From: an uncultured Clostridia bacterium
Lineage (GTDB): Bacteria; Bacillota; Clostridia; Christensenellales; UBA1242
Reading direction: 5' to 3'
Assembly (NCBI GenBank): GCA_947632645.1
Contig: CANRQB010000001.1
Coordinates: forward strand, 70,813 to 134,812
DNA: 64,000 nucleotides
Below the pieces are notes generated by a model. It saw only the letters and a program-made list of their open reading frames with translations. It searched no databases and was not told the origin of the DNA. Both the position numbers and the translations under genes were made by a program. This document shows positions 6,812-48,495 of the stretch, one piece after another. Every line of letters starts with the position of its first letter. Position 1 is the stretch's first letter.

Positions 6812-7492
6812 ATGGGACAAAAAGTTAATCCATTAGGTTTAAGGTTAGGCACAATTAGAACTTGGAACTCTTTTTGGTACGCCGACAAAAAAGATATTGC
6901 AAAAAACATTAAGGAAGATAATGTTATCCGTAACTACATCTTTAAAGAGTATAAAAATTGCGCTATCGCTAACGTTACAATCGAACGCACCGAAAACGCA
7001 GTTACAGTAAGTGTTTTCACTGGCAAACCTGGTGTGCTTATTGGCCAAAAGGGTGCTGGCGTAGAAGCATTAAAGAAAAATATAGAAAAACTTACCATTG
7101 CAAAACGCGTTAACGTTAATGTAGTGGAGGTTAAAGAGCAAGATTTAAATGCAAAATTGGTGGCAGAGTCTATTGCCGCGCAACTGGAAAAACGTGCACA
7201 ATTCAGGCGCGTTATGAAAAGTGCAATCCAACGCGTTATGCGTGCGGGTGCAATCGGTTGCAAGGTTATGATATCTGGCCGACTAGACGGGGCAGAAATT
7301 GCGCGTAGTGAACAAGACCACGATGGTACACTTCCGCTGCAAACCATCCGCGCCAATATAGATTATGCACAGGTAGATGCACACACCACTTTTGGTGTTT
7401 TGGGCGTTAAAGTGTGGATAAATAAAGGCGAAATTTTGGGTAAGGTTAGTCAACTTTCTGCACAACAATCCCGCAAAAAAGGAGATAACTAA
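6812..7492 (+). CDS. rpsC: 30S ribosomal protein S3
   Basis: 226 aa; [13 protein letters not shown]... Confidence 0.97.
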
Positions 7493-7494
7493 TT

Positions 7495-7926
7495 ATGTTA
7501 ATACCTAAAAGAGAAAAAAGAAGAAAAGTTCATCGCGGTAGAATGACTGGCCGTGCTATTCGTGGTAGCAAAGTTACCTATGGCGATTATGGTTTACAAG
7601 CAACCGAACCATGTTGGATAACTCCAAACCAAATAGAAGCAGCCCGTGTTGCAATTAACAGATATATGAAACGTGGCGGCAAGGTTTGGATTAAAATCTT
7701 CCCACACAAACCTATCACCAAAAAACCAGCCGACACTCGTATGGGTAGCGGTAAAGGTGCACAGGTTGGTCACGTTGCTGTTGTAAAAACAGATAGAGTG
7801 CTTATCGAGGTTAGTGGTCCAAGCGAAGAAGCGTGCTTGGAAGCGCTTCGCCTTGCAAGCCACAAACTTCCTTGCAAAACTAGAGTAGTTCGTAAGGAAA
7901 AGGCAGGTGATAACAATGAAGAATAA
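7495..7926 (+). CDS. rplP: 50S ribosomal protein L16
   Basis: 143 aa; [17 protein letters not shown]... Confidence 0.97.
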
Positions 7927-25821: not shown

Positions 25822-26142
25822 ATGAATTTAGATTATAGAGAAGAAATTGCCATACGCGACTATATGCCCAGCAAAACGGATTTAATAAATCTGTCATCAT
25901 TTTTTTATGCCTTTAGCGACCGTACCCGCCTGCGCATAATAATTCTACTTACAATAAAACCACTTTGCGTAACCGATATCTCCACTATATTATCGCTAAA
26001 CCAAACCACGCTAAGCCACCAACTTAAAATACTAAAATCGCTTAATATTGTGGACTGTGACCGCACAGGCAAAACCATTGTTTACTACATAAAAAATAAA
26101 GCGATAACGGAGGTGCTGAACGCGACCGTCGATTGCATTTAA
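25822..26142 (+). CDS. ArsR/SmtB-family winged-helix transcriptional regulator
   Basis: ATG at 25822. ...FFYAFSDRTRLRIIILL...CVTDISTILSLNQTTLSHQLKILKSLNIV... is the typical ArsR HTH. Confidence 0.85.
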   Translation: MNLDYREEIAIRDYMPSKTDLINLSSFFYAFSDRTRLRIIILLTIKPLCVTDISTILSLNQTTLSHQLKILKSLNIVDCDRTGKTIVYYIKNKAITEVLNATVDCI

Positions 26143-26725
26143 ATCAGGCTGCTTATAAACTTCGCGATACGTCGTTTACTGAAAGGCGCGCATCTCAGTC
26201 ATTTAAAATCAGGCGGTATAAGCGGCGCGATGCTGCGTTTCTGGGCTTTGTGTAACTTGGTCATTTAGGGCTACTAAACTCCCGCGTTACCCAAAGCCCG
26301 AGCCTTGCCTCGCTTGCTTCTCCCGCCTGATTTATTGTCTGTGTTTGGCTTAATTATATTGGTAGGAGTGCTATAGAATTTTTTTGTCTTTCGCGAATTT
26401 CGAGCCTAGTCTCGCTTGTTTCTAAGCAGCCTGATTAACAGCTGTTAGAAAGGGTTGACATAATTAGAAGAACTTTGTCTTGCTTGCTTCTATTCAGCCT
26501 AAATATAAGGTGGATTTGATAAAATTTTAAAATATTTATCCTTTGCGAATTTCGAGCCTAGTCTCGCTTGTTTCTAAGCAGCCTGATTAACAGCTGTTAG
26601 AAAAGGGTTGACATAATTAGAAGAACTTTGTCTTGCTTGTTTCTCCCGCCTGATTAACAGGTTAGAAATAAGTTGACATGATGAAAAGAGCCTTGTCTTG
26701 CTTGCTTCTCCCGCCTGATTAACAG
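26137..26725. repeat. Cluster of degenerate ~35-60-nt repeat units in both orientations (at least 3 inverted and 6 direct copies)
   Basis: Core ...GCCTTGTCTTGCTTGCTTCTCCCGCCTGATTAACAG occurs at about 26300, 26402, 26471, 26554, 26623 and 26688. Reverse-complement cores (AAATCAGGC...) lie at 26141 and 26206. An 11-bp perfect inverted repeat, AAATCAGGCGG (26206-26216) / CCGCCTGATTT (26323-26333), is present. Confidence 0.8.
26393..26644 (+). repeat. ~100-nt tandem duplication with 152-bp period inside the repeat cluster
   Basis: 26393-26491 and 26545-26644 are identical except for one A indel and one mismatch (GCGAATTTCGAGCCTAGTCTCGCTTGTTTCTAAGCAGCCTGATTAACAGCTGTTAGAAAGGGTTGACATAATTAGAAGAACTTTGTCTTGCTTG...). 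Confidence 0.85.
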
Positions 26726-26878
26726 CCGTTAAAATTACTTATTTTAAGGCGTAAAATATTTTGCTTTACAATTAATCAAAAGGTGGATTTTTTATGCTTG
26801 TGTATAAAATTAAATAAAAAATGGCAAAATTTTATGTAATTTTATACAAAAAATGTGTATTTGTGATATAATTTAGGC

Positions 26879-28087
26879 ATGAAAAGATTATTGCGGATCG
26901 GCGCAAGCACATTTGTACTTTCAATTGTTCCGATAATTTCGTGGTTTTTGCTTGGATTAACCCTTGACGGCAATTTGGTTAATATTTTTTCGCTTACCTA
27001 TCCGGTGCAGTTTGTTTTTTCTTTATTTATTTGCGTTTTTGCTAGTGGGGCAAATATCAAGCAAGCAAAAGAAGGCAACAAAAATGCAGTGTTAAGTGGC
27101 ATGACGCTTGGGGCTGTTGTGGGTGGAGTATTTTATGCACTGCTGCTAATTTTTAACAAGCAATACATTCAATTTTTAAATATGGACGTTGGCATTTACA
27201 AACATTTTGCAATATATTCGTTTACTTCGCAATATGTGCACTTCTTGTTCTCCATGACGCTAGAAAAAATGTATTTTGAAGATAAGGACAAAATTGCTTA
27301 CCGCCATAGTTTAATTTTTAACATAATGGAATTTGTTGTGCTAATTGGCAGTTCGCTTATTGTTAAGAACGATTTTGTTATAATTGGCACAACCATAACT
27401 TGCATAACAATATACGCGCTTGTGCTGTTTTTTAAACAATTCCACAAATTTAAACTGGATTTTAACATTTTAACCAATTTTAAATACGAATCTACCGATA
27501 TTGTTGCGTATTTGTTGCTAATTGGTACATATTTCTTTGGTTACAGCAACGCGTTTGAGGGTGGCGCGGAATATGTTGCTGCAATCAATTTTGTCGCGCT
27601 TATAACCGATGCGCAGTGGGATTGTTGCAATGCAATGTCCACCGTGGCAAAAATTGATATCGCCAATGGCAAATATAACTATAAACAAACCATGAAGAAT
27701 TGTGTAAAATACACTTTGATTATTATGTCCACATCTATAATAGCATTTTTTGCGCTGTTTAAATTGTATAATGTAGATTTAAAAATAGGATTGATATGCT
27801 TGCTGGTTGAGGTGGTCGACTTTATATACAACCCAATCACCTATGGGTTTGAGCCATATGTGCAACTAGAATACTCTGCCGTAAAAAATACAACAATTTC
27901 AATAATTTCGTATCTAGTTAGGTTTTTAATTTCTAGCTTTGTTCCTATTGCATTATGCACCGTGCTTGGGCAGTTTGTTAGTAGTTTAATTGGCCTAGTT
28001 TGTTTGTTGTTTATTAGATTTAAAGTTTACCGTGTTAAAGATGGAAATTTGGTTAAAAAAGTGCAAAAAAATGCAAATAATAACTGA
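26879..28087 (+). CDS. Polytopic membrane protein (many predicted TM helices), possibly flippase/MOP-like
   Basis: 402 aa, hydrophobic throughout with short loops. The family assignment is a guess from topology only. Confidence 0.6.
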   Translation: MKRLLRIGASTFVLSIVPIISWFLLGLTLDGNLVNIFSLTYPVQFVFSLFICVFASGANIKQAKEGNKNAVLSGMTLGAVVGGVFYALLLIFNKQYIQFLNMDVGIYKHFAIYSFTSQYVHFLFSMTLEKMYFEDKDKIAYRHSLIFNIMEFVVLIGSSLIVKNDFVIIGTTITCITIYALVLFFKQFHKFKLDFNILTNFKYESTDIVAYLLLIGTYFFGYSNAFEGGAEYVAAINFVALITDAQWDCCNAMSTVAKIDIANGKYNYKQTMKNCVKYTLIIMSTSIIAFFALFKLYNVDLKIGLICLLVEVVDFIYNPITYGFEPYVQLEYSAVKNTTISIISYLVRFLISSFVPIALCTVLGQFVSSLIGLVCLLFIRFKVYRVKDGNLVKKVQKNANNN

Positions 28088-32408: not shown

Positions 32409-32708
32409 ATGAGTTTGTTTTTAGCCGATACAATTTCTAACACCACAAGCACTGTGCTGCCAATTATCGCGCGCATTTTGCTGGTGATTATTGCACTTTT
32501 ATGCTTGGTTTTGGTGGTGCTTGTGTTTATGCAAATCACTGGCGATAACGAAGCAAATAATGTTATTACTGGCAATCAAGATAGCTACTATGCAAAAAAC
32601 AAATCTGGCTCGCGCGAAGGGCGCATAACTAGGCTTATCTACATTGCGATTGGCATAATTGCTGTGCTGGCTATTGTATACTTTATACTTATAAAAGTGG
32701 TGTACTAA
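32409..32708 (+). CDS. secG: Probable preprotein translocase subunit SecG
   Basis: 99 aa with two TM helices flanking a polar loop (LVFMQITGDNEANNVITG...). Sits directly upstream of rnr-smpB, as in Bacillus (secG-...-rnr-smpB). Confidence 0.55.
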   Translation: MSLFLADTISNTTSTVLPIIARILLVIIALLCLVLVVLVFMQITGDNEANNVITGNQDSYYAKNKSGSREGRITRLIYIAIGIIAVLAIVYFILIKVVY

Positions 32709-32883
32709 CCGCTTTTTTTTATTTGGCTTTTTGGGTGGATGGCCTACGCCAAATTCTTTTCTTTGGGTCGGGAAAATAATTTGGCGTGCTGCTTTTACCC
32801 TAAGTATTATAGCCATAATAAAAAAATTGCTAAAAGCCATTAATTTAGTTTATTATTTTAAAATAAAATGCTAAAATATAGTT

Positions 32884-35353: not shown

Positions 35354-35794
35354 ATGGAAAAATTGGTGGCGGAAAACAGGCGCGCCCGTTTTGAATATGA
35401 ATTGCTAGAAAAATTAGAGGCGGGCATTGTGCTTACAGGTGACGAAATTAAGTCGGTTAGGCTTGGACATTTTTCCATTGCCGATTGCTATGGCTACATT
35501 AAGGCGGGCGAATGCTTTTTACGCAACAGCTACATTAAAGAGTATGCCAATTCGTTTAACGCATCCCGCGGGGGAGATACTACGCGCCGTGACCGCAAAC
35601 TTCTGCTACACAAAAAAGAGATTGAAAAGTGGCACAAGCGCATAGAGACCGAGCACCTAACCTTAGTGCCAACCCGCGCCTATTTTGTGGATAGCCAACT
35701 AAAAGTAGAAATTGCCCTTGCTCGCGGTAAAAAATTGTGGGACAAGCGCGCTACCATAAAGGAAAGAGAACTTAATAAAAAATTAAAAATATAG
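35354..35794 (+). CDS. smpB: SsrA-binding protein SmpB
   Basis: 146 aa; ...ENRRARFEYELLEKLEAGIVLTGDEIKS... Confidence 0.95.
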   Translation: MEKLVAENRRARFEYELLEKLEAGIVLTGDEIKSVRLGHFSIADCYGYIKAGECFLRNSYIKEYANSFNASRGGDTTRRDRKLLLHKKEIEKWHKRIETEHLTLVPTRAYFVDSQLKVEIALARGKKLWDKRATIKERELNKKLKI

Positions 35795-37942: not shown

Positions 37943-39955
37943 TTAAAATAGATCGTCGTCGTCATCGTCGTCGCCATTTTGCCTTGCCATTAATTTGTTG
38001 CGCTCTTTAATGTCGTAGAACACCTTTTCTTCATCCAGTGCGCGGCGTTGCATATACACTGGCGCTGCCTTACTTGTATCGTACAAATTGGTTGCTTTAA
38101 AGTATGGGGTGATTTTGGTTTTAAGTGCGGCTTCTGGCTCGAAGGTCTTAATAATAATTTGCTCTTTATCCCTAAACGACATAAGTTCGTGCGGGTAGGC
38201 GATAGGGATGGATTGGTTTTGTTTAGAATACGATTTTGTGGTTTTGCCGTCCGGCCCTTCGCTTTCGTTTACGCTTTGTACGCTGATGGTTTTGTTGCCA
38301 AGTAGTTCGCTAAACTCTTTGTTTGTAACCGTGTCTTCAGATGCGATATACACTTGAATAGGGCAGTTATCTTTAATAATTTTACCCTCATCCTGCCCGT
38401 ATACCTGATACAACTGGCTGTAGCTTTGCACAATCAGTTCAAAGAAAATGCCACGGCTGCGGCCAACCGCCATATAGTTACCAAATTGTGGGAACTTAGG
38501 CATGTTACCGAACTCATCTAGCATAAAGTACACATTGCGCTTTAGTTTGCCACCAATTTGGTTTGCCTTTTCTACAAGCCGTTTATACAGTTGGTTAACA
38601 AACAAAATTGCAAGTGGGTAACGCGTGCGAATTTCATCTGGAATAATAAGGAACACTGCAGTAGGTTTTTCGTCTATCTTGGTAAAATCCAATTCGCTGT
38701 TGCTGGTTAAAAATGCAATACCAGAGTCGTTAAACATACTTACGCCGGCGGTTGCAAATCCCACGTAGTTTTTAGAAGTACTATCCGCATTGTTAAGCGC
38801 GGTGTTGCAAAGTTGTGCCACCTGGCCAAATTTATCGCGATAGCTAAATAGATATTGTTTCATAGTGGCGTAAGTGTCGCGTCCGCTATCCTGTGTGTTA
38901 ACAATTTTTGCCACGTTGTAAAAGTTAAATTTATCTCGTGTAAGGCCAAGTTCTGGAATACGCGTATCCTCTAGCATCGCCAAAATTATACCTTGCAGCA
39001 GTTTTTGCGCGGTTTGCTCCCAACTTGGGTCTTTTTCGTTTTGGATTGGCACAATCGCTTGGCAGATATCGGTTAGGGCATTATATGTTGTGTCTTGCAA
39101 CTCTTTTGCCACAACGCGCATATCATTTTCTAGCAGATGCTTGTCTGCATAAGCGGTGTTGCCAAATTCAAACCAAGTGGTGGTGTTGTAATCAAAATTG
39201 GTTTGTTTTATAAGCTTATATCTGTCCGGATTATCGCCCGGCTGATGCACTTTAACTTCTTTTGCCAAATTAAAACTGCGGGTGTATAAATCGTATGGGT
39301 AAAAAAGTGGATTCCATTGCACGCTTTGGAATGGGTTGCGTAGGTTTAAAACGTGCACATCATACCCTTCCTTTCTAAACTTGTTGGCGTTAATTTCGTA
39401 CAGCTCGCCCTTAGGGTCGGTTATAACAAAGCTTGGCTTTGCAGCAGTGGTAGACATAAGTTGCAAGCTAGGCACAACAAAACGTGTGGTTTTACCCGAT
39501 GATGTGGTACCAACAACTAGGGTGTGGATTGGCTTTACAAAATTTATTTCCATGCCTAAGCCCTTTGCCTCGGCGCGCACCAAAATGCCGTCTTTGTTGC
39601 ACGAGCGTATGCTAGATAGGGTGTTGTAGTTAAAGCCCTTTTCTTTTTTAAGCACGTCGTCGGTTACAAAATCTTTATCATAAAATTGCTGAACTTTTTT
39701 GCCCTTGGTGTCGGTAACGCTATCCTCTGCCTTGCCGCCCTTTTTAGAACCGCTGCTGCCATCTAACGATTTAAGCACCTTAATAACAAAGTATACCGCC
39801 ATAGAAAAGCCAGTTATAAACAAACTAACGCCAATATATTTGCGGTTAAAAGCAAAAGCGCTGGTGCTAAAATAGGTTGCAACAATGTTGCTAACAACAA
39901 ATATCAAAATTGCGGTTATAACAGCAAAGATAATTTTTTTACCGATTTTTTTCAT
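37943..39955 (-). CDS. Type IV secretion coupling protein (VirD4/TraG/TraD family ATPase) with a poly-Asp C-terminus
   Basis: 670 aa. Two N-terminal TM helices; Walker A VVGTTSSGKTT; DPKGELY; Walker B YFMLDEFGNMP; GRSRGIFFELIVQSYSQL; tail ...QNGDDDDDDDLF. Confidence 0.88.
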   Translation of the reverse strand: MKKIGKKIIFAVITAILIFVVSNIVATYFSTSAFAFNRKYIGVSLFITGFSMAVYFVIKVLKSLDGSSGSKKGGKAEDSVTDTKGKKVQQFYDKDFVTDDVLKKEKGFNYNTLSSIRSCNKDGILVRAEAKGLGMEINFVKPIHTLVVGTTSSGKTTRFVVPSLQLMSTTAAKPSFVITDPKGELYEINANKFRKEGYDVHVLNLRNPFQSVQWNPLFYPYDLYTRSFNLAKEVKVHQPGDNPDRYKLIKQTNFDYNTTTWFEFGNTAYADKHLLENDMRVVAKELQDTTYNALTDICQAIVPIQNEKDPSWEQTAQKLLQGIILAMLEDTRIPELGLTRDKFNFYNVAKIVNTQDSGRDTYATMKQYLFSYRDKFGQVAQLCNTALNNADSTSKNYVGFATAGVSMFNDSGIAFLTSNSELDFTKIDEKPTAVFLIIPDEIRTRYPLAILFVNQLYKRLVEKANQIGGKLKRNVYFMLDEFGNMPKFPQFGNYMAVGRSRGIFFELIVQSYSQLYQVYGQDEGKIIKDNCPIQVYIASEDTVTNKEFSELLGNKTISVQSVNESEGPDGKTTKSYSKQNQSIPIAYPHELMSFRDKEQIIIKTFEPEAALKTKITPYFKATNLYDTSKAAPVYMQRRALDEEKVFYDIKERNKLMARQNGDDDDDDDLF

Positions 39956-40302: not shown

Positions 40303-40692
40303 ATGAAATTCTTTTCTATGTTATTAGATACTGAAACAACCAAACAAACACTTACCGAAAAATACGAGTGGCTTGGCGATTTAACAAGTGCTGTTAAAAA
40401 TGTGCTTAACCCAATTTTAATTGTTGCATGTTTGGTGGGCATTATATATGCAATTTGGGTTGGTGTGCAATTTGCTAAGGCAGATAGTTCCGATCAACGT
40501 AAAGAGGCTAAAAACAAACTTATAACCGTTATCGTTGGCGTTGTTGCGGCGGGTGCGTTGGTTGCTTTGTTCTACTGGCTAACTTGGATGATAAACAACG
40601 ACAAAATTCATTTTGATATCAAAGGCCAAGTTGGCACATCATTTGGTGGCTTTGTTCAACAACAACTAATGTGGATACATTCATTCTTTTAA
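40303..40692 (+). CDS. VirB2/TrbC-like small membrane protein (pilin-like conjugal transfer protein)
   Basis: 129 aa. Two TM helices flank a short charged loop (...VGVQFAKADSSDQRKEAKNKLITVIVGVVAAG...). Strong terminator at 40698-40719. Position is next to the T4SS ATPases. Confidence 0.55.
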   Translation: MKFFSMLLDTETTKQTLTEKYEWLGDLTSAVKNVLNPILIVACLVGIIYAIWVGVQFAKADSSDQRKEAKNKLITVIVGVVAAGALVALFYWLTWMINNDKIHFDIKGQVGTSFGGFVQQQLMWIHSFF

Positions 40693-40841: not shown

Positions 40842-42320
40842 ATGGCGGACGACGACGAATTTGAAGATGATGAGCAATTAGATGAAGAAGATTTGGGCGA
40901 CGAAGAAACCGATAATGGAGACGAAATCGCGGACGACGATGACAACGACGAAGAAGATGACGAAGAAGAACAAGATAGCCAGCAAATGGCTAATGCCGAT
41001 AAAACTGCCATAACCAACCGATTAAAAAAATTAGAAAAATCATTAAAGAAAAGGCCAGTTCCAATTTTGTCGCCAAAAGAAAAACGACTTATAAAACAGG
41101 GAAAAGCAGTAAATCCAAAATTGGCATATAGAATAGAACTTTTATCATTAAGGCGTAAAGCAAGCGCTGCGCGTAAAACGATTATTGGTGGCGGTGTGCT
41201 TGTGTCGCTTTTGCCAGTAATTTTGGTTGTGCTAGTATTGGTAATGATTGGCTCGATAATCTCGTCAATATTTGGCTCGCGCTATAACGACGATGGCACG
41301 CCTGCGCCAAGTGAACTTGCACTTAACGGGAATCAAATATATGCCGCCCGCGCATTTTACACAGACGATGCGGCAGCAAACAAAAAAATTATTAATGACT
41401 ATTGTGGATATATCGCCTCGGCAATTGAGGGATACAACAGCACAAGCAGCGAATTTACACTTAACATAACACTACCTGCAAATGCCTTTGATTATAGCGA
41501 ATTTTTAACCATGTATACCGATACCCAGTATGGGTATTATAGGCTTGCTAGGTTAAGCTATATTTTTGCGCAAAATGTTAATTTGCAATATGGATTAAAT
41601 AAAACCGAAACCGATTTTGCGGGCATAATTAATGATATACAATATTTTGGGTTAGAGCAATCGCAGTTTGAAGAGGCAATGGGTGCAGTGGCCAACGAAA
41701 TTGTTAAAAATGGCGAGGACGATTGGTACACGCCAAAAGAGGGCAACAATCAGCCAAATATGTCTAACGATGCGCTTAGCCAAAGTTTAATTGAGGCGTC
41801 CAACTTTTCTGCAAGTGAACTTACACAAAAGGTATTTGTTGTAGATAGTGTGGTGGAAGGCGATAACACTCTTGCTTGGTTTAATGCCGGCGCAACCGCA
41901 AATGAAAAAACAAAAAAATACCTTGCAATAATGTATTTTCCGCACGCAAATTTTAGCATAGGAAGTTTATCTTATGCGTTTATAAAAACAGGCGAAGGTG
42001 AGGTTGTTGTTCACTATGGCGAAAATAGTTATAAGCTGCAAGCCGTGTCGGTGGAGGACGATAACTACACCTACGAAAGCGAAGAAATAAATTTAAATGT
42101 GTCGGCAAGCGAAAAGCCAGCTGTGCTGCTATCTAGCGATGCAACACTTAGCGAACTTTTCTCGCAAATAAAATCGCAGGACGAACAAAACCTTGACACA
42201 TATTTTGATGTGCAAGAGGTTGACGGCAAAAATGTTTATACCTACAAATTGTTTAACCTTTACGCCGAATTTAACTTTGATGACTATTTCAGCTTTGCCG
42301 ACCAAAACAATTCATATTAG
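40842..42320 (+). CDS. Bitopic membrane protein with an extremely acidic N-terminus; T4SS-associated, function unknown
   Basis: 492 aa; MADDDEFEDDEQLDEEDLGDEETDNGDEIADDDDNDEEDDEEEQD; single TM (GGGVLVSLLPVILVVLVLVMIGSIISSIF); ~350-aa extracytoplasmic domain with no recognisable motif. Confidence 0.7.
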   Translation: MADDDEFEDDEQLDEEDLGDEETDNGDEIADDDDNDEEDDEEEQDSQQMANADKTAITNRLKKLEKSLKKRPVPILSPKEKRLIKQGKAVNPKLAYRIELLSLRRKASAARKTIIGGGVLVSLLPVILVVLVLVMIGSIISSIFGSRYNDDGTPAPSELALNGNQIYAARAFYTDDAAANKKIINDYCGYIASAIEGYNSTSSEFTLNITLPANAFDYSEFLTMYTDTQYGYYRLARLSYIFAQNVNLQYGLNKTETDFAGIINDIQYFGLEQSQFEEAMGAVANEIVKNGEDDWYTPKEGNNQPNMSNDALSQSLIEASNFSASELTQKVFVVDSVVEGDNTLAWFNAGATANEKTKKYLAIMYFPHANFSIGSLSYAFIKTGEGEVVVHYGENSYKLQAVSVEDDNYTYESEEINLNVSASEKPAVLLSSDATLSELFSQIKSQDEQNLDTYFDVQEVDGKNVYTYKLFNLYAEFNFDDYFSFADQNNSY

Positions 42321-42360
42321 GCGCAAACTGTACTTTTGCTAAATTAATTTGGCAAGCAAA

Positions 42361-42700
42361 TTAATTGTAAGCATGTCGCAACAACCCTTTATTAATCGTT
42401 TTGCATACGCAAAACTTCATTTTTAGGGATGTTGTTCCTTTCCCCAAAAAATTACGATTTTTTCGGGGGCCCCAAATTTTTGCGCCTTTGCTATTAAGGG
42501 ACACCCGCTGGTTTCCCTTAATAAATCCTTTCCTGAAATGTGTCTGCCTACGCAAGGGAACTGCAGCGGGGAAAGTTTTAAAATTTTGCATACCTACGCA
42601 TGGGAATATTTACTTTTCTATGCTAGAAAAGTTACAAAAGACCTGGGGCGTTCCGATTCGCCCCAGACCCCACAAACGGCTTACTTTAAAAATAAGCAAA
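42361..42700. other. Hairpin-dense, relatively GC-rich non-coding island inside the T4SS-like module (candidate ncRNA, oriT-like site or decayed gene)
   Basis: Stems: 42398-42415; 42442-42468; TTAAGGGA/TCCCTTAA 42494-42521; CTTTTCTA/TAGAAAAG 42613-42631; CTGGGGCG/CGCCCCAG 42643-42666; GCTTA/TAAGC 42679-42697. Direct repeat CCTACGCAWGGGAA at 42546 and 42592. No credible ORF. Confidence 0.45.
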
Positions 42701-42732
42701 AAGTAGATTTTTAATTAATATAAAATGCAATT

Positions 42733-42897
42733 ATTACAATAGTAATAAAAACGAATAACGTAATATTACAATAGTAATTAAATTAATTTTCAACATATCA
42801 TTATAACTTTAGTTATCAAAATTTTAACTAAGGTTTTTTATTTATCTAATTTTATAATTAATTTAGATATTGTGGCTGTCTTTATTACAATAGTAAT
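42733..42897. repeat. Three copies of ATTACAATAGTAAT (ATTAC-N4-GTAAT) upstream of the VirB6-like gene
   Basis: Exact 14-mers at 42733-42746, 42765-42778 and 42884-42897, each within TATTACAATAGTAAT. Confidence 0.8.
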
Positions 42898-42955
42898 AAT
42901 CATTTATAAAAAAATAAAATAAAATGTAAAAAAATAATAGATTTGTTTGTTTTTT

Positions 42956-42984
42956 TTGTTTATTTAGTGTATACTATGTATAAT
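42956..42984 (+). promoter_or_regulatory. Candidate promoter of the VirB6-like / VirB4-like genes
   Basis: TTGTTT (42956-42961), 17-nt spacer, TATAAT (42979-42984). Confidence 0.4.
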
Positions 42985-43029
42985 TAAAATAGCGTTTATA
43001 GTTAATTCGCAAATAGATATGGGGGAAAT

Positions 43030-45471
43030 ATGGTTGGAGGTTTTAGCATCGGTCAAGCAATAGAGGGCGCACTAGGTAACTTTTTATATCCACTTTTTAG
43101 CATTCTTATGGTTTTAATTGACGGGATACAACAATTGTTTTACGCTTTTGCTGGCGTCGGAGAAGTGTTTATTAATGGTCAAAAAATAACTTCTGGCAAC
43201 ACTGGTAATTTAACCGACACTGGCATAATATTTTATCTATTAAATTCAAATTTTGTAAGAAATATATTCATCTCGTTATTGGCACTTGCCGTAGTTTTGC
43301 TAGTGCTGTTTGCGGCAATCGCTTTTGTTAAAAATATGTATTCAGAAAAGCCAAAAACTTGGCAAGATATAATTGGTAATGCAGTTAAAGGGTTGGCAGG
43401 TTTTATTGTAACTCCGTTGATATGCATATTTGGCGCTTGGGGTGGCAATATATTGTTAAAAGCAATAAATCAGGCAACAAACGCTGGTGACACTGCAAAC
43501 ATGGCGGGGCAATTGTTTGTTGTGTCATCATATAATGCAAACAAAGTAAGAACAGGTGATATGAGTATAGAGCAAGCTAGATCATTCTTAACCGGACATC
43601 AAGGTGGCAATTATAGTGCCGATTGGTCAGCGGAAGATTACGCTAAAGAGATTGATAATTTTTACTCCAAAAATCCAGATTATTATTATGAAATTGCTAA
43701 AGTAGGCGATTGTTATAAAACATTCAAAATCAACTATTTATTGCTTGGAATTGGTGGCGTATTTATGTTATATGCGCTGGGATCTATCACTTTTGGAGCA
43801 ATCAAACGAATGTTCCTTTTGGTTTTCTATTTTGTTATAAGCCCAGTTGCGCATTCGCTTGCTCCTATCGATGATGGTAAGGCTGGTGGAGATGTAAGAA
43901 GCAACTTTTATAAGCAATTTATAAGTGTTTATGGGGCTGTTGCCGGCTTAAATTTATTCTTTAGCGTCGTGCCTTTGTTCCAAAGTATGAAATTTGTTTT
44001 AGGATCAAGTACGCAAGATTTCTTATTTGGTGGGCTGGTTAACCTAATAATAATCATAGTTGGTTTATTAACCGTTAATGAACTTATCAGTTTTGTGTCT
44101 GGTTTTGCCGGCGGAGAAGATCTTTATGGTAAAGGAAAAGGTGTTATGAGTGGCGTACGTGGGCAAACTAAAAAATATGGCAAATATGTTCAAAAAGCTG
44201 GCGGAGCCTTTATTGGTGGTACAATTCGTGGTGTTGGTAGAGCAAGAGAATCCTGGGCTAGAAATTCAGCTGAAAACCGTGCAATAGATGAAAGGAACGC
44301 ACAACGATTAGCACAATATAATCAAGGTAGAGCAGAAGCAGATCAAAAAGAACTTAGCCAACTAACCAATGAAGAAAGAAAACAATTAGGCATAGAAAGC
44401 CATAAACTTACAGGTGTGCGCGCAGGTGCTAGTTTTTTAGCTGGAACTGGAACCTCATGGCTAAAATCTGCCGGCGGCGCAATTAACAAGGGTGTTGGAA
44501 CTGCCATTCAAGAAACAACAGGACTTGATGTTGGTGGTAGTGCTAGTGAAATGGGGAAAAAATTTGCAGGATTTGTATCTGAAAATTATGGCACGGGTTA
44601 TGACACAAGAAAGGATAAAACTAAAAAAGCTGACACTAAAGCGTTGCAAGAGGCAATGAAAAGTGATAAAGATACTCGATATGTGGTAAATAAGGATGGA
44701 TTGACAATAGAAGGTAACAGCACGGTGCAGCACGCAGCCGAAGAAGCAGCGGTTGAATTATTAAAATCTATTAAGAAAAAAGCCAAAGATGATAAAGAAG
44801 CGGATAAAATGTTGGAAGAGTACACTGCAAAAGGCACTCAATTTAGCCAAATTTTAAAGGCATTGGGTATTGATGGCAAAAAGATGGAAGATCTCTATCC
44901 TGTGTTAGATAGTTCGGTTAAAACAAGGCAGAGTGCCGAGCGTGGCATTGCAAGATTGGATGACAGGACGAGATATGCCGAAAATGAAGAGGCAAAAGTT
45001 ACAGCTGCACAATCGTTTATAGATGCATATCATATTGAACGAGATGGCGAAGGCAGAATTGTTGGCGACGCCGCTAGATATGGCATTACAGATGATGCAG
45101 ATAAAACAAATTTTGCTAATATACAAACTGCATCTATCAATGCCTCAGGTGCAAGAGAAATTGCAAGAGAAATTGCTGGCAGCATAAAAGAAACACTCAA
45201 AAATGCTAACGACACTTATAAATCTAGTCGTACCTTTGCAGAATTTTCGGATGAGAGCATGGCAAAATTAAATCAAGCTATGAGTAAACTTGGCAGCAAG
45301 CTTGGTGACAAAGAGGATAAATTAATCGAAGCTATTAGAGGCATGACAGACAAAACTGTTAGAGAATTAAAAGAAGTTAAAAAAGCAGTTACAGACTCAG
45401 CAAAGGGTAGAAGAGGCAGCCGTGGCTCTAGCGGAGGTTCTGAGGATAGTGGGACAGGCAGCAGTACATAG
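43030..45471 (+). CDS. VirB6/TrbL-like polytopic T4SS membrane protein with a long charged C-terminal domain
   Basis: 813 aa. The N-terminal ~360 aa hold multiple TM helices; the C-terminal ~450 aa are charged and coiled-coil-like, ending in a G/S/R-rich tail. Immediately precedes the VirB4-like ATPase. Confidence 0.6.
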   Translation: MVGGFSIGQAIEGALGNFLYPLFSILMVLIDGIQQLFYAFAGVGEVFINGQKITSGNTGNLTDTGIIFYLLNSNFVRNIFISLLALAVVLLVLFAAIAFVKNMYSEKPKTWQDIIGNAVKGLAGFIVTPLICIFGAWGGNILLKAINQATNAGDTANMAGQLFVVSSYNANKVRTGDMSIEQARSFLTGHQGGNYSADWSAEDYAKEIDNFYSKNPDYYYEIAKVGDCYKTFKINYLLLGIGGVFMLYALGSITFGAIKRMFLLVFYFVISPVAHSLAPIDDGKAGGDVRSNFYKQFISVYGAVAGLNLFFSVVPLFQSMKFVLGSSTQDFLFGGLVNLIIIIVGLLTVNELISFVSGFAGGEDLYGKGKGVMSGVRGQTKKYGKYVQKAGGAFIGGTIRGVGRARESWARNSAENRAIDERNAQRLAQYNQGRAEADQKELSQLTNEERKQLGIESHKLTGVRAGASFLAGTGTSWLKSAGGAINKGVGTAIQETTGLDVGGSASEMGKKFAGFVSENYGTGYDTRKDKTKKADTKALQEAMKSDKDTRYVVNKDGLTIEGNSTVQHAAEEAAVELLKSIKKKAKDDKEADKMLEEYTAKGTQFSQILKALGIDGKKMEDLYPVLDSSVKTRQSAERGIARLDDRTRYAENEEAKVTAAQSFIDAYHIERDGEGRIVGDAARYGITDDADKTNFANIQTASINASGAREIAREIAGSIKETLKNANDTYKSSRTFAEFSDESMAKLNQAMSKLGSKLGDKEDKLIEAIRGMTDKTVRELKEVKKAVTDSAKGRRGSRGSSGGSEDSGTGSST

Positions 45472-45508
45472 TTAAAATCTTATTATAGTGATTTTTCACG
45501 GAGGGGTT

Positions 45509-48295
45509 ATGATAAGGTATATTCCCGGTAAAACGAGGATTAAAACTGAATTTTTTAGAAACTTTGGGCTAATGGATATTCTATTAGCCATTGTTTTGGC
45601 TGTGTTTGCAATTGTTATTGCATCCAGCCAACGCTTGTTTGTGTTTGGCGGAACGGACTATCGCTGGTGGTTTGTGTTGGGCTGGATTGCAATATCTATT
45701 TCTATGTTTTTGCCAATTGATGATGGCCTTAAAATGTGGAATAGTATTGGGTTGGTTATAAGGTTTGCCGCTTTCCCACGCAAATATATTAACGATAAAA
45801 ATGCAAAAATTGTAAAAACCAAAAATGGCAAAACCAAAACTGTTGTTAAAGGCGGAAAGCCTATGAGCAGGCTTACACCTTTCTTTAACATAGAAGTGGG
45901 CAAGTATATAAACATGGGCAGTTATTCGGGCATCGCCATCGAAATTATGCCAGTTGCAATGGACCTTATGCAAGAAGAGGCGCAGGATGGCTTAATAAAC
46001 ACCTTTTCCCGTGCACTTAAACGTATAACGCGTTATCAGCGTGCGCAACTTATAAAAACCATAAAACCAATGCGTTTTGATGGCTTTTTGGATAGTGACG
46101 ATAAGAAATACGATTTGCTTAACACCTTGTACGAGCAGGGGCAGTATAGCGATGCCGAGATGGAAAGCCGCAGTTTAATTTTCCGCGAACGTGTGGACAT
46201 TTTAAACAATGCAATAAACAGCGAGCCAATACTGCAAAATCACTACTATTTTGTGCTGTATGGCGACGATAGGCAAAGTTTGGACGATACCAGTGTGGGC
46301 TTTGTTAACGACCTTGCCAGTGGGCAGTATTCTATCGCCAGCAAAATTCTTATGGAAGAAGAGCTTATAAGTTTTTTAAAATCTAACTACGATGATGTGT
46401 ATTCCGAGCAGGATATTAAAAACCTTGCGCCAAGCCAGGTTAACAACTGGGTTATGCCGGGCAAAATCAACTTTAAAGTGGCGCGCTTGGAAATGGATAA
46501 AAGAAGTTATCGCCAACTTGCAATTTCCGATTATCCTATGGAGGTTGGTAATGGTTGGGCGTACCAAATATTTAACCAACCAGGCACGCGTGTGGTTATG
46601 AACATTATGCCGGTGGATAGGGAGAAGGGCGAAAAGGCCATTGACCGCGCCGTTATGGAGAAAGAGTTAAAACTGGAGCGCACCTATAGAAGCAGCCAGA
46701 TTATAGAAAAGGAAGCAGATATTGATAGTTTGCGCACCCTTTTAACCGATATTAAAACCAATAACGAACAGATTTACGATATCAGCATCCATTTGCGTGT
46801 GGAAGAGCAAAGCAGAAAAGAAGTGCGCAACGTGCTTAAACAATATGGCTTTAAACAGAGCGAATTATTTGGGCGCCAGGTGGACGCGTTTGTATCCAGC
46901 AGCTTAAATAGGATAGACACTCTAACCAACTTCTACCGCACTATGCCATCTACCACTATCGCTGCATCCTTCCCAATGGTGGATAGTTTGATGCAGGATA
47001 AAAATGGGTTCTGCCTTGGGCGCTCGTCGTCTAGCGGATACCCAGTGTTTATCGATTTCTTTGTGCGTGATAGCCGCGCCGGGCGTATTAACAGTAACCT
47101 TATGGTTATTGGTAAATCGGGCTCGGGCAAATCGTTTGCGGTTAAGGATATTTTGGCAAACCTTGCCGCCGACCGCACTAAGATATTCCTACTAGACCCA
47201 GAGGACGAATACGGCCCGCTTACACACAACTTGGGCGGCAAACTTATCGACGTTGGCACAAATAGTTCGGGTATTATAAATCCTTTCCACATTATGGCAG
47301 CGCTTGAGGACTTGGAAACCGGTGTGGGCGAGGAAGATGATGATGAAGATAAGAGCATAGATGAACTTGTGGCGCGCGGCAATAACAAAACTTTCTTTAC
47401 TCATTTGCAGTTTTTGGAGCAGTTCTTCCGCGCAATTTTGGAGGGCATAAGTTCGGACGCATTTGAAACACTTAACACTTTGGTGGTAGAACTCTATCAC
47501 AGCAAGGGGATAGACGAAAAAACCGATATCGGCAAACTTACTGCCAACGATTATCCAATTTTTGATGACTTATTTAAACTTATTAAAGATAAACTAAAAA
47601 CGGTTAAGGACGAATTTTACCGCAACAATCTGCTTGTGCTGGAAACCTATATTCAAAAATTTGCAACTGGCGGGCGCAACTCGGATTTGTGGAACGGCCC
47701 AACCAGCATTTTAACTGACGAAAACCTTATTACATTTAACTTCCAAACACTGTTTGCCAGCAAGAACAACAAGTTGGCAAACGCGCAGATGCTGCTTGTA
47801 TTTAAATATTTGAACAACGAAATTATCAACAACAAACGCTTTAACGAACAATATTATGCGCGCACGGGCAACGACATTAAACGCCAAGTTGTTATTGCGG
47901 TGGACGAAGCGCACATGTTTATCGACCCAGACAGCCCGGTTGCGCTTAACTTTATGGCGGAGATGGCAAAACGTATACGTAAATATCAGGGTATGCAAAT
48001 TGTTATTACGCAAAATATTAAGGACTTTTTGGGCACGCCAGAAATTCAGCGCAGATCGGCGGCAATTATTAATGCCTGCCAATACAGCTTGATACTGCAA
48101 CTTGCGCCAAACGATATGGCGGATTTGTTGGAACTTTATAAGAGCGCGGGCGGCATAAACAAACGCGAACAAGAGGGCATTTTAACCGCACCTCAGGGCA
48201 GGGCATTCTTTATCACCAGCCCAATGAACCGCTCGTTTATCGACATTATTGCTCAGCCAATTGCGAGGGAGATTATGGGCGAAGGGCGAAGATAA
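45509..48295 (+). CDS. VirB4/TraE/TrbE-family T4SS ATPase with an N-terminal VirB3-like membrane segment
   Basis: ATG at 45509 after GGAGGGG. Two N-terminal TM helices; Walker A VIGKSGSGKSF; LLDPEDEY; Walker B VIAVDEAHMF; ...IVITQNIKDF... Confidence 0.88.
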   Translation: MIRYIPGKTRIKTEFFRNFGLMDILLAIVLAVFAIVIASSQRLFVFGGTDYRWWFVLGWIAISISMFLPIDDGLKMWNSIGLVIRFAAFPRKYINDKNAKIVKTKNGKTKTVVKGGKPMSRLTPFFNIEVGKYINMGSYSGIAIEIMPVAMDLMQEEAQDGLINTFSRALKRITRYQRAQLIKTIKPMRFDGFLDSDDKKYDLLNTLYEQGQYSDAEMESRSLIFRERVDILNNAINSEPILQNHYYFVLYGDDRQSLDDTSVGFVNDLASGQYSIASKILMEEELISFLKSNYDDVYSEQDIKNLAPSQVNNWVMPGKINFKVARLEMDKRSYRQLAISDYPMEVGNGWAYQIFNQPGTRVVMNIMPVDREKGEKAIDRAVMEKELKLERTYRSSQIIEKEADIDSLRTLLTDIKTNNEQIYDISIHLRVEEQSRKEVRNVLKQYGFKQSELFGRQVDAFVSSSLNRIDTLTNFYRTMPSTTIAASFPMVDSLMQDKNGFCLGRSSSSGYPVFIDFFVRDSRAGRINSNLMVIGKSGSGKSFAVKDILANLAADRTKIFLLDPEDEYGPLTHNLGGKLIDVGTNSSGIINPFHIMAALEDLETGVGEEDDDEDKSIDELVARGNNKTFFTHLQFLEQFFRAILEGISSDAFETLNTLVVELYHSKGIDEKTDIGKLTANDYPIFDDLFKLIKDKLKTVKDEFYRNNLLVLETYIQKFATGGRNSDLWNGPTSILTDENLITFNFQTLFASKNNKLANAQMLLVFKYLNNEIINNKRFNEQYYARTGNDIKRQVVIAVDEAHMFIDPDSPVALNFMAEMAKRIRKYQGMQIVITQNIKDFLGTPEIQRRSAAIINACQYSLILQLAPNDMADLLELYKSAGGINKREQEGILTAPQGRAFFITSPMNRSFIDIIAQPIAREIMGEGRR

Positions 48296-48310
48296 TCCGC
48301 CTCTATTATT

Positions 48311-48341
48311 GGGCGCACAAGTGTGTGTGCCCTTCTTTTTT
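48311..48341 (+). terminator. Terminator after the VirB4-like gene
   Basis: GGGCGCACA-agtg-TGTGTGCCC followed by TTCTTTTTT. Confidence 0.7.
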
Positions 48342-48495
48342 GGCGGTTATCTTCGCCTATTATGAAGGGGGACCTGCTTCCCCCTTCATGACTTCCCTCT
48401 TGAATAGGTTGAATTTTTAAGAAATATATAGATGATATGTATAAATCTTACGTTTTTTTGTTGATTTTTGCTTAAATTTTGGTTAAAATAACTAT

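Follow-up and report, generated by a model that had tools for sequence, protein, structure and literature searches.

BOX elements of Streptococcus pneumoniae are modular intergenic repeats composed of boxA, boxB and boxC, and the repetitive extragenic palindromic (REP) sequences and bacterial interspersed mosaic elements (BIMEs) can serve as mRNA 3'-end stabilizers or terminators. Here, we describe a non-coding island of ~340 nt (positions 42361-42700) in a 64-kb stretch of contig CANRQB010000001.1 from an uncultured Clostridia bacterium (Christensenellales, UBA1242), hereafter called the window. The island is located 3' of a gene coding for a 492-aa protein, between two transcription units of a type IV secretion system (T4SS). 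In our assessment it is probably a cluster of structured interspersed repeat modules of the REP/BIME, BOX or Correia kind, the core of which is a copy of a ~120-nt repeat family that we call R1. Since this core is a repeat that also flanks tRNA, rRNA and ordinary genes in related gut Clostridia, the island is, judging from sequence, not a dedicated part of the secretion machinery.

R1 resembles BOX elements in being short, non-coding, strongly folding, modular and multicopy, in its intergenic position near unrelated genes in either orientation, in carrying one or the other of two modules (hairpin B or hpC, see below), and in forming tandem arrays. It differs from them in having no sequence similarity, in its host lineage, and in its two-domain fold with a variable inner hairpin, its cross-genus covariation and its marked association with tRNA flanks. 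REP/BIME sequences of enterobacteria and pseudomonads are extragenic palindromic units, often in mosaic clusters downstream of genes, and R1 copies likewise abut another short hairpin repeat at a fixed junction (..CAGAATGAC followed by nnCGTCRC); however, R1 is 3-4 times longer than a REP, lacks a GTAG-type 5' tetranucleotide, and has no REP-associated tyrosine transposase (RAYT)-type gene beside the copies examined. A third comparison is offered by the Correia repeat enclosed elements (CREE) of Neisseria, the pneumococcal repeat units (RUP) and other miniature inverted-repeat transposable elements (MITEs), which are ~100-150-nt non-autonomous repeats at gene ends that may overlap stop codons and supply terminators or processing sites. 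In contrast to these, the ends of R1 (5' CGTCRCAA... and 3' ...GGGGNCCCC) are not inverse complements of each other, which sets it apart from a MITE.

Results

Weak nhmmer and blastn matches led from the island to three loci (L048, L050 and L022; related loci and contigs are cited by such handles), each with a ~120-nt stretch laid out like window positions 42364-42482: an outer stem with a TTGC..GCAA hairpin inside it, then a CTCCTTTTCCCC tract and a hairpin of an A-run and a T-run that CCCC/GGGG closes, with GGGGACCCC at the end. An R1 covariance model made from these four sequences (window, L048, L050 and L022) detected additional significant copies at varying places in the VirB6 loci, on either strand. 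A consensus DNA pattern then retrieved 44 metagenomic stretches, mostly from human gut, in which the R1 model finds 50 copies; the same pattern gave no match in viral contigs. From these 50 metagenomic copies only, with no window sequence, we built a second covariance model, R2. With filters off, R2 matched 42364-42482 on the + strand over the full length of the model (59.5 bits, E ~1e-19), and this was its sole significant match in the 64 kb. Since R2 was made from metagenomic copies alone, R1 membership is shown independently of the window.

The modules of R1 follow the order CGTCRCAA-P1, a variable P2, P1', an unpaired GYTCCTTTTCCCC tract, hairpin B and GGGGNCCCC. Quantification of the family alignment revealed pairing in 92.3% of cells, compared to 38-61% (maximum 60.6%) when partners were slid by 1-3 columns; double-sided changes occurred in 15 of the 23 pairs, and neither the pairing nor the covariation score was reached in any of 500 shuffles. 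Because the alignment had been fitted to the model, these counts are biased toward structure; the slid controls and the differing helix sequences argue that the fold is real. P1, for example, reads ACAAAC/GTTTGT, AAAAGC/GCTTTT, CAACC/GGTTG, GCACAC/GTGTGC or CAACA/TGTTG, and hairpin B reads CAAAAG/CTTTTG, CACGGG/CCCGCG or CACAAG/CTTGTG. The window copy forms the same helices: P1 (GCAACA.CCCT at 42378-42388 with AGGG.TGTTGT at 42426-42436), a 9x9 T-rich internal loop between P1 and P2 (42398-42415), then the unpaired C/U-rich tract TTCCTTTCCCC and hairpin B (42442-42468), with GGGGGCCCC at the end. Covariation in relatives, proposed as a check in an earlier note made from the letters of this DNA, was therefore found for the R1 fold.

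The features of the island and its surroundings are as follows.

42321-42357, + strand: 5' part of a truncated R1-like element, immediately 3' of the TAG stop that ends the 492-aa gene (assigned by resemblance; no covariance-model match of its own)
42364-42482, + strand: full R1 copy (R2, 59.5 bits; family covariation)
42484-42547, + strand: hpC module with hairpin C, TATTAAGGGA/TCCCTTAATA, and loop CACCCGCTGGTT, then AAATCCTTTCC (covariance model R3, 57.7 bits, sequence in seed)
42548-42611, + strand: direct-repeat pair CCTACGCA(A/T)GGGAA at 42547-42560 and 42593-42606 (25-nt units, 76% identity)
42612-42700, + strand: hairpins E (42612-42632), F (42643-42666) and G (42679-42697), lineage-specific
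42701-42918, no strand assigned: AT-rich spacer, GC ~0.15, with three palindromes TATTACAATAGTAATA
42919-42998, + strand: promoter-like block upstream of the VirB6-like gene (TTGTTTGTTTTTTTTGTTTATTTAGTGTATACT...); 87.5% identical to L001 1912-1991 and 83% to L002 3812-3895
48279-48414, + strand: sister composite after VirB4 (fold of 48290-48415 with z=-7.9, the most stable in the window; R3, 56.3 bits, in seed)

Rfam 15 at the gathering threshold, run on the whole window, gave no match for the island, and a search of 42200-43100 in E-value mode gave only chance-level matches (E >= 0.7), so that the island belongs to no known Rfam 15 family (tmRNA, tRNA, RNase P, 6S, OLE, ROOL, raiA, HEARO, EAR and RsaE among them), a comparison that the earlier note had suggested. 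When 12 loci with canonical R1 copies were searched, Rfam reported only tRNA and SSU rRNA, with nothing at E<5 in L109 9680-10120, and a full-text literature search for conserved R1 strings returned only a chance 12-mer match. As far as these Rfam and literature string searches show, the R1 family is undescribed, although the kind of element is itself known.

We then examined the stems of the island. All six stems that the earlier note had listed are present: GTTTTGC/GCAAAAC at 42398-42415 (P2), CCCC-AAAAAAT/ATTTTTT-(C)-GGGG at 42442-42468 (hairpin B), hairpin C, which with 10 perfect bp at 42492-42523 exceeds the length first given, ACTTTTCTA/TAGAAAAGT (hairpin E), CTGGGGCG/CGCCCCAG (hairpin F) and GCTTA/TAAGC (hairpin G). 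The island contains 6 perfect stems of 7 bp or more whose loops span 3-24 nt, whereas 2000 dinucleotide shuffles contained 0.97 on average (P=0.0035); one of the six counted stems (AAAAATT/AATTTTT) is an alternative pairing that overlaps hairpin B. Folding of both strands, also called for earlier, gave a minimum free energy (MFE) of -104.1 kcal/mol on the + strand (z=-5.78) and -108.5 kcal/mol on the - strand (z=-3.80), and no shuffle was as good on either. In a GC-corrected MFE scan of the 64 kb, the island is among four outstanding loci, beaten only by 48251-48425, 26201-26350 and 32676-32825. Its GC content (0.36-0.435) is coding-like and, as had been noticed, above that of the AT-rich spacer (0.145-0.28 in 42600-42999; ~0.15 right of the island). 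The further pairings fared less well. The pseudoknot-like 7-mer and the 8-mer complementarities are at chance level, with ~3.5 and ~0.9 such pairs expected in 340 nt by our own estimate; the 8-mer CTTTCCCC does exist, one position away from where it had been placed, at 42438-42445. The 46-nt-spaced direct repeat was also real but misplaced by one nucleotide, and its 13/14 identity is above chance (~0.01 expected, by our own estimate).

The second module, hpC, has the family consensus ATGAGGGA..TCCCTCAT then nACTCCTTTTCC. Its relatives are found at L039 3427-3494, L047 3676-3743, twice in L022, and at window 48353-48414, with compensatory changes (ATG..CAT vs ATT..AAT) and extra G-C pairs. The R3 model was built from these six members, both window sites included, and found no further hpC in the window (filters off) or in 0.88 Mb of loci. 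In L039 and L047, hpC stands in place of hairpin B after an R1-type P1/P2 domain, indicating that the modules combine in different ways. The sister composite after VirB4 is similarly organized: its outer stem GGGCGAAGATAATCCGCC/GGCGGTTATCTTCGCC spans the VirB4 stop, and within this stem lie both a 9x9 T-rich internal loop and the intrinsic terminator (GGGCGCACA agtg TGTGTGCCC TTCTTTTTT); the second hpC comes next. The architecture of 48279-48360 is the same as that of hairpin A of the island, with an inner hairpin that is a strong terminator. This terminator hairpin is conserved in the closest relative, L001, at 7463-7500, where an R1-like match is also present right after the VirB4 stop (7247-7363).

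At the left edge, 42321-42357 reads GCGCAAACTGTAC, which resembles the family 5' motif CGTCRCAAACTGCAC and so suggests a truncated copy ahead of the full R1; AT-rich palindromes (TTGCTAAATTA/TAATTTGGCAA and AATTAATTTG/CAAATTAATT) follow. The left 225 nt can be assigned to modules with good evidence, and the right 150 nt only by analogy. In the right part, TTTTGCATAC at 42585-42594 duplicates the P2 arm and loop of 42399-42408; because this duplicate and the direct repeat are present, 42548-42700 may consist of decayed repeat copies.

Copies of R1 outside the window occur in very different surroundings. In 663 kb around 80 VirB6 loci there are ~19 R1-like matches at E<1e-4. Elsewhere, many members of the family are found downstream of tRNA operons (Gly-Cys-Leu, Met-Met-Glu-Val, Leu-caa, Leu-aag, Asn and Met), 36-400 nt past the 3' end, and in 9 of 10 distinct locus types, by our own tally, R1 is on the strand opposite to the tRNA. 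Two copies abut the 5' end of tRNA-Leu back to back, with abutment at the first base at L101 8439 and L108 356. At four loci, a piece of 17-31 nt from the 3' end of the adjacent tRNA is fused to R1 at its 5' edge (L103 6778-6808, L105 1286-1316, L115 7048-7068 and L104 72-88), and the tRNA terminator is duplicated at these fusions; the R1/tRNA junction often reads GNGAC-NNN-GTCNC. These junctions suggest recombination at tRNA genes. R1 is also found in the 16S leader, ~30-38 nt upstream of the 16S 5' end and on the same strand as the rRNA (L067 8221-8343; L071 3827-3949), and further neighbors code for EF-G, MatE, HtrA, RlmH, RNase H and a phage terminase. In L100, L109 and L112, two or three copies stand in tandem, and one assembly carries at least 9 copies on five contigs at 70-82x coverage. 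The family as a whole thus occurs in both orientations and in unrelated intergenic contexts, as an interspersed repeat should. These neighbors and mixed orientations, together with the absence of the island from L001, speak against the proposal of the earlier note that it is a structured regulatory or scaffold RNA of the secretion module; the R1 modules at stop codons and the sense hpC copies, to which we return below, hint at a local cis role and are what remains in support of one.

The genes around the island were identified by Pfam as VirD4 (37943-39955, - strand), a T4SS pilin (40303-40692) and VirB4 (45488-48295), in partial agreement with the earlier note. The 492-aa and 813-aa proteins have no Pfam domain; the label "VirB6-like" therefore rests on position and on 62 homologues of the 813-aa protein, which are of similar size and have the same neighbors. 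Scanning one genome per species yielded the 80 VirB6 loci (Candidatus Onthoplasma and uncultured Clostridia or Christensenella metagenome-assembled genomes (MAGs), from animal and human gut). Onthoplasma belongs to Christensenellales; a study of gut bacteria with reduced genomes lists its MAGs at ~0.8-0.9 Mb with a coding density of 0.90-0.93 (PMC12306168). In L001, whose VirB6 is 51% identical, a 148-nt gap with a plain intrinsic terminator comes after the orthologous gene, which codes for 480 aa. Since this 148-nt gap directly precedes the conserved promoter-like block, the window carries ~580 nt that L001 lacks, namely the island and the AT-rich spacer. L001 has a terminator here and its R1-like copy after VirB4 instead, which makes the placement non-syntenic. 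The island is also absent from the same place in L002 and in most of the 80 loci. BLASTN of the island against the window revealed no other copy, and plasmid and phage collections gave no meaningful match. In relatives, the corresponding gaps are full of short hairpin repeats of other types. One of these, GTCATTCTGAGCG...CGCTCAGAATGAC, fills the gaps in L026 (3400-3750), L038, L039 (3500-3650 and 3760-3830), L016 and L022 (1660-1760); its translation yields the spurious peptide motifs "LRMT" and "VILSE", and R1 is often joined to it at ...CAGAATGAC.

Other samples yielded three low-coverage contigs of this strain that match the window at 99.95-100% identity and break inside the island. L083 and L084 end exactly at window position 42386 and L085 starts at 42510, so that among the same-strain contigs only the source contig spans 42387-42509. 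These ends look like repeat-like assembly behavior. An invertible segment was considered as the cause of the breaks and set aside, the only flanking inverted repeat being AACC/GGTT.

The dense hairpins on both strands, the location within a T4SS gene cluster and the adjoining AT-rich tract with repeated palindromes would all suit a DNA site for the T4SS, either an origin of transfer (oriT), as the earlier note had also considered, or a post-transfer single-strand origin. However, no relaxase, Rep or integrase was detected among the 19 window open reading frames (ORFs) around the T4SS genes that were scanned with Pfam, and core genes (RNase R, SmpB, Ldh, SpoVT and aminoacyl-tRNA synthetases) surround those of the T4SS, with the VirB4-Ldh linkage kept in relatives; the cluster is not in the context of a plasmid or an integrative and conjugative element. 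Nor is the site conserved: it is missing in L001 and L002, and the 80 loci match only the R1 core, mostly at non-syntenic places. With a core that also flanks tRNA, rRNA and housekeeping genes and no match in plasmid or phage collections, we consider a transfer site very improbable. We also compared R1 to integron attC sites, which share a short inverted motif pair around a variable structured center and fold on either strand. This candidate was rejected, since the P1 motifs (ACAAAC/GTTTGT) do not fit RYYYAAC/GTTRRRY; R1 further differs in having no integrase, no cassette array and mixed orientations.

Next, we evaluated coding potential. The mechanical ORFs of the island code for 101 aa (TTG start, + strand), 58 aa (ATG, +) and 76 aa (ATG, -). 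Their codon log-odds are -0.31 to +0.06, compared to 0.45±0.14 (5th percentile 0.19) for real genes; none has a Shine-Dalgarno sequence, a Pfam match or a homologue in two protein-database searches, and an exact look-up found none among the called genes of a protein collection. The view that the island has no credible ORF therefore stands. Six-frame tblastn of the island against the 80 related loci gave no match, and translated-pattern scans with the 101-aa ORF in genome, metagenome and viral collections gave no confirmed match, although these scans were too strict to detect the R1 family. A decayed protein-coding gene, the last of the origins proposed in the earlier note, would account for the coding-like GC content and for the scarcity of stops in 4 of 6 frames (1, 2, 2 and 5 vs ~7 expected). 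Against this stand the non-coding-like log-odds in every frame, the negative tblastn, protein-database, Pfam and translated-pattern searches, and a left third that is a non-coding repeat whose loop-length changes disrupt any frame, and we give this origin hardly any credence. Mini-ORFs or a type I toxin-antitoxin arrangement on the reverse strands of hpC or R1 were also considered and rejected, as the frames are not kept between copies.

To the right of the island, the 16-nt palindrome TATTACAATAGTAATA occurs in the spacer at 42732-42747, 42764-42779 and 42883-42898 (5 strand matches vs 0.2 expected), with none elsewhere in the 64 kb; it is absent from L001. These palindromes look like operator sites for a dimeric regulator. 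The promoter-like block that follows is the right-hand limit of the lineage-specific DNA. This block (TTGTTTGTTTTTTTTGT..TAGTGTATACT) is 83-88% identical where the VirB6 proteins are only 39-51% identical, with weaker matches in many other loci, and is probably a strongly constrained promoter or leader.

The length of the island (~340 nt), the position of smpB 7 kb upstream and a T-arm-like hairpin F, whose loop TTCCGATT and tail AGACCCCA resemble that arm, led us to consider a tRNA or transfer-messenger RNA (tmRNA). ARAGORN and Rfam were both negative for hairpin F and the island, and a tmRNA is unlikely also because the left third of the island is a multicopy repeat. The smpB gene lies at 35354-35794, and neither ARAGORN nor Rfam reported a tmRNA gene anywhere in the 64 kb; ssrA is either not adjacent to smpB or too divergent to detect. 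Other parts of the window are also rich in structure. A different repeat family, with 65-72-nt units in at least 3 copies, occupies 26140-26760 within the 740-nt gap before the gene at 26879; its unit has a TTGACAT box and then GTCTTGCTTG(C/T)TTCTCCCGCCTGATTAACAG, and 26201-26350 forms a very stable GC-rich fold. A strong fold (GC-corrected z ~-4.6, + strand) that includes GGCCTACGCCAAATT...AATTTGGCGTGCTGC is located at 32700-32830, after a small membrane-protein ORF.

Discussion

Our results favor a cluster of interspersed repeat modules, and several observations weigh against this interpretation. Within the window there is only one R1 copy (R2, filters off). For 42548-42700, 1.1 Mb of related loci contain no relative and the covariance models give no match, so that these positions are called repeats by analogy only. 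Terminal inverted repeats and target-site duplications were not seen when the flanks of 55 copies were read by eye, with no dedicated search. No candidate mobilizing gene was found beside the 10 copies examined, where the neighboring ORFs are housekeeping or phage genes. The unpaired GYTCCTTTTCCCC and CGTCRCAA tracts are conserved across genera of different GC content while P2 is free to vary, which points to selection on sequence and not only to recent amplification. All six hpC copies are sense and inside T4SS loci, where random insertion predicts otherwise, albeit in a sample of T4SS loci and one 64-kb window. Finally, in about four independent lineages (window; L039/L047; L067; L017/L031), a sense-oriented R1-like P1/P2 domain has its start at or over the stop of the orthologous ~490-aa gene, and most other lineages have only a plain terminator at the same spot. 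This recurrence could mean that a useful 3'-end module was inherited, that the repeat prefers this site, or that compact genomes tolerate insertions at few places.

The last observations would be explained if R1 and hpC were cis-acting 3'-untranslated-region modules that terminate, process or stabilize transcripts, with the copy after the 492-aa gene (from the fragment at 42321) inherited and selected. The intrinsic terminators of the other lineages at the same place suggest functional equivalence, both hpC copies of the window come after T4SS genes, the sister element at 48279-48360 holds a strong terminator, and the fold is kept with covariation. We nevertheless judge this unlikely, since R1 is also antisense in T4SS loci (L016, L039 3843-3966, L044 and L047 2165-2280), is opposite to the tRNA strand in nearly all of the tRNA locus types and is absent at the L001 site, and since the hpC sample is as narrow as stated above.

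Another reading is that R1 is a multicopy small RNA (sRNA) family, transcribed in the orientation of the model, whose C/U-rich UUCCUUUUCCCC and 3' CCCC pair with Shine-Dalgarno regions in the manner of RsaE/RoxS and LhrC. These UCCC-motif sRNAs (RsaE/RoxS, LhrC1-5) likewise have unpaired C/U-rich tracts between hairpins, a length of ~110-120 nt and, in some cases, tandem siblings; the tandem R1 copies recall LhrC1-4. In R1, the GYTCCTTTTCCCC tract is nearly invariant, single-stranded between two conserved helices and complementary to the GGGGA/AAGGAG ribosome-binding sites of these genomes, and several copies at tRNA loci lie between a divergent gene and a bidirectional terminator with a conserved TACAAT ~45 nt upstream. 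Unlike those sRNAs, R1 has no Rfam match, no terminator of its own and far more copies (one genome bin has at least 9, which is many for sRNAs), in both orientations to its neighbors. Moreover, array units lack a promoter as well as a terminator, no U-tract comes after hairpin B, copies lie directly against tRNA fragments and repeats of other types, and a promoter/terminator scan at the window copy found no + strand promoter-like site before 42364 and, as the only terminator-like site, P2 inside the element. Strand-specific folding does not favor the model strand either. Raw MFE favors the reverse complement in 46 of 52 copies; after dinucleotide-shuffle normalization the strands are alike (mean z -3.6 vs -3.9, p=0.09). 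We therefore abandoned strand calls by raw MFE, and also those by G·U vs A·C counts, which are confounded by a one-base register shift in the model. The lack of strand preference fits a DNA-level repeat and would be compatible with an RNA too. Taken together, we regard an sRNA family as quite improbable.

More broadly, R1 and hpC could be an undescribed class of functional, not selfish, structured elements of Christensenellales, acting either as an RNA module that forms or guards 3' ends, recruited in several lineages to the stop codon of the gene for the acidic T4SS protein, or as a C/U-rich anti-Shine-Dalgarno sRNA family. If this were so, the fusions of the 5' edge of R1 to tRNA fragments would hint at a tRNA-linked way of duplication that is not known from bacterial repeats. 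We offer this as a tentative idea, on the doubtful side of our assessment.

If the island is a cluster of interspersed repeats, its modules would have spread by recombination or transposition, with several junctions at the 5' edge of R1 near tRNA gene fragments. Any local effect would then be generic. The hairpins may end or pause the pilin/492-aa transcript, for which P2 and the UUCAUUUUU that follows it in the window could be the basis, and they could shield the 3' end of the transcript from exonucleases, insulating it from the conserved VirB6 promoter. A role in termination or stabilization is a proposal, and the arrangement of P2 followed by a U-tract is not general in the R1 family, which counts against extending it to other copies.

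For the biology of these bacteria, our findings remove an unsupported account of a dedicated RNA or oriT in a chromosomal T4SS, and the repeat nature of the island would account for the breaks of independent assemblies of the organism at this place. R1 is a covariation-supported ~120-nt repeat family without an Rfam model which, with its companion hpC, occurs in reduced-genome Christensenellales (UBA1242/Onthoplasma-like) and related gut Clostridia; the retention of such non-coding structure stands out because these genomes are ~91-93% coding (PMC12306168). With covariance models of R1 and hpC, such repeats could be masked or annotated in MAGs, whose assemblies they fragment and in which they may be miscalled as genes. 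R1 is also of interest for metatranscriptomics, as it lies beside tRNA and rRNA genes, has an edge fused to tRNA fragments and recurs at the stop of one T4SS gene.

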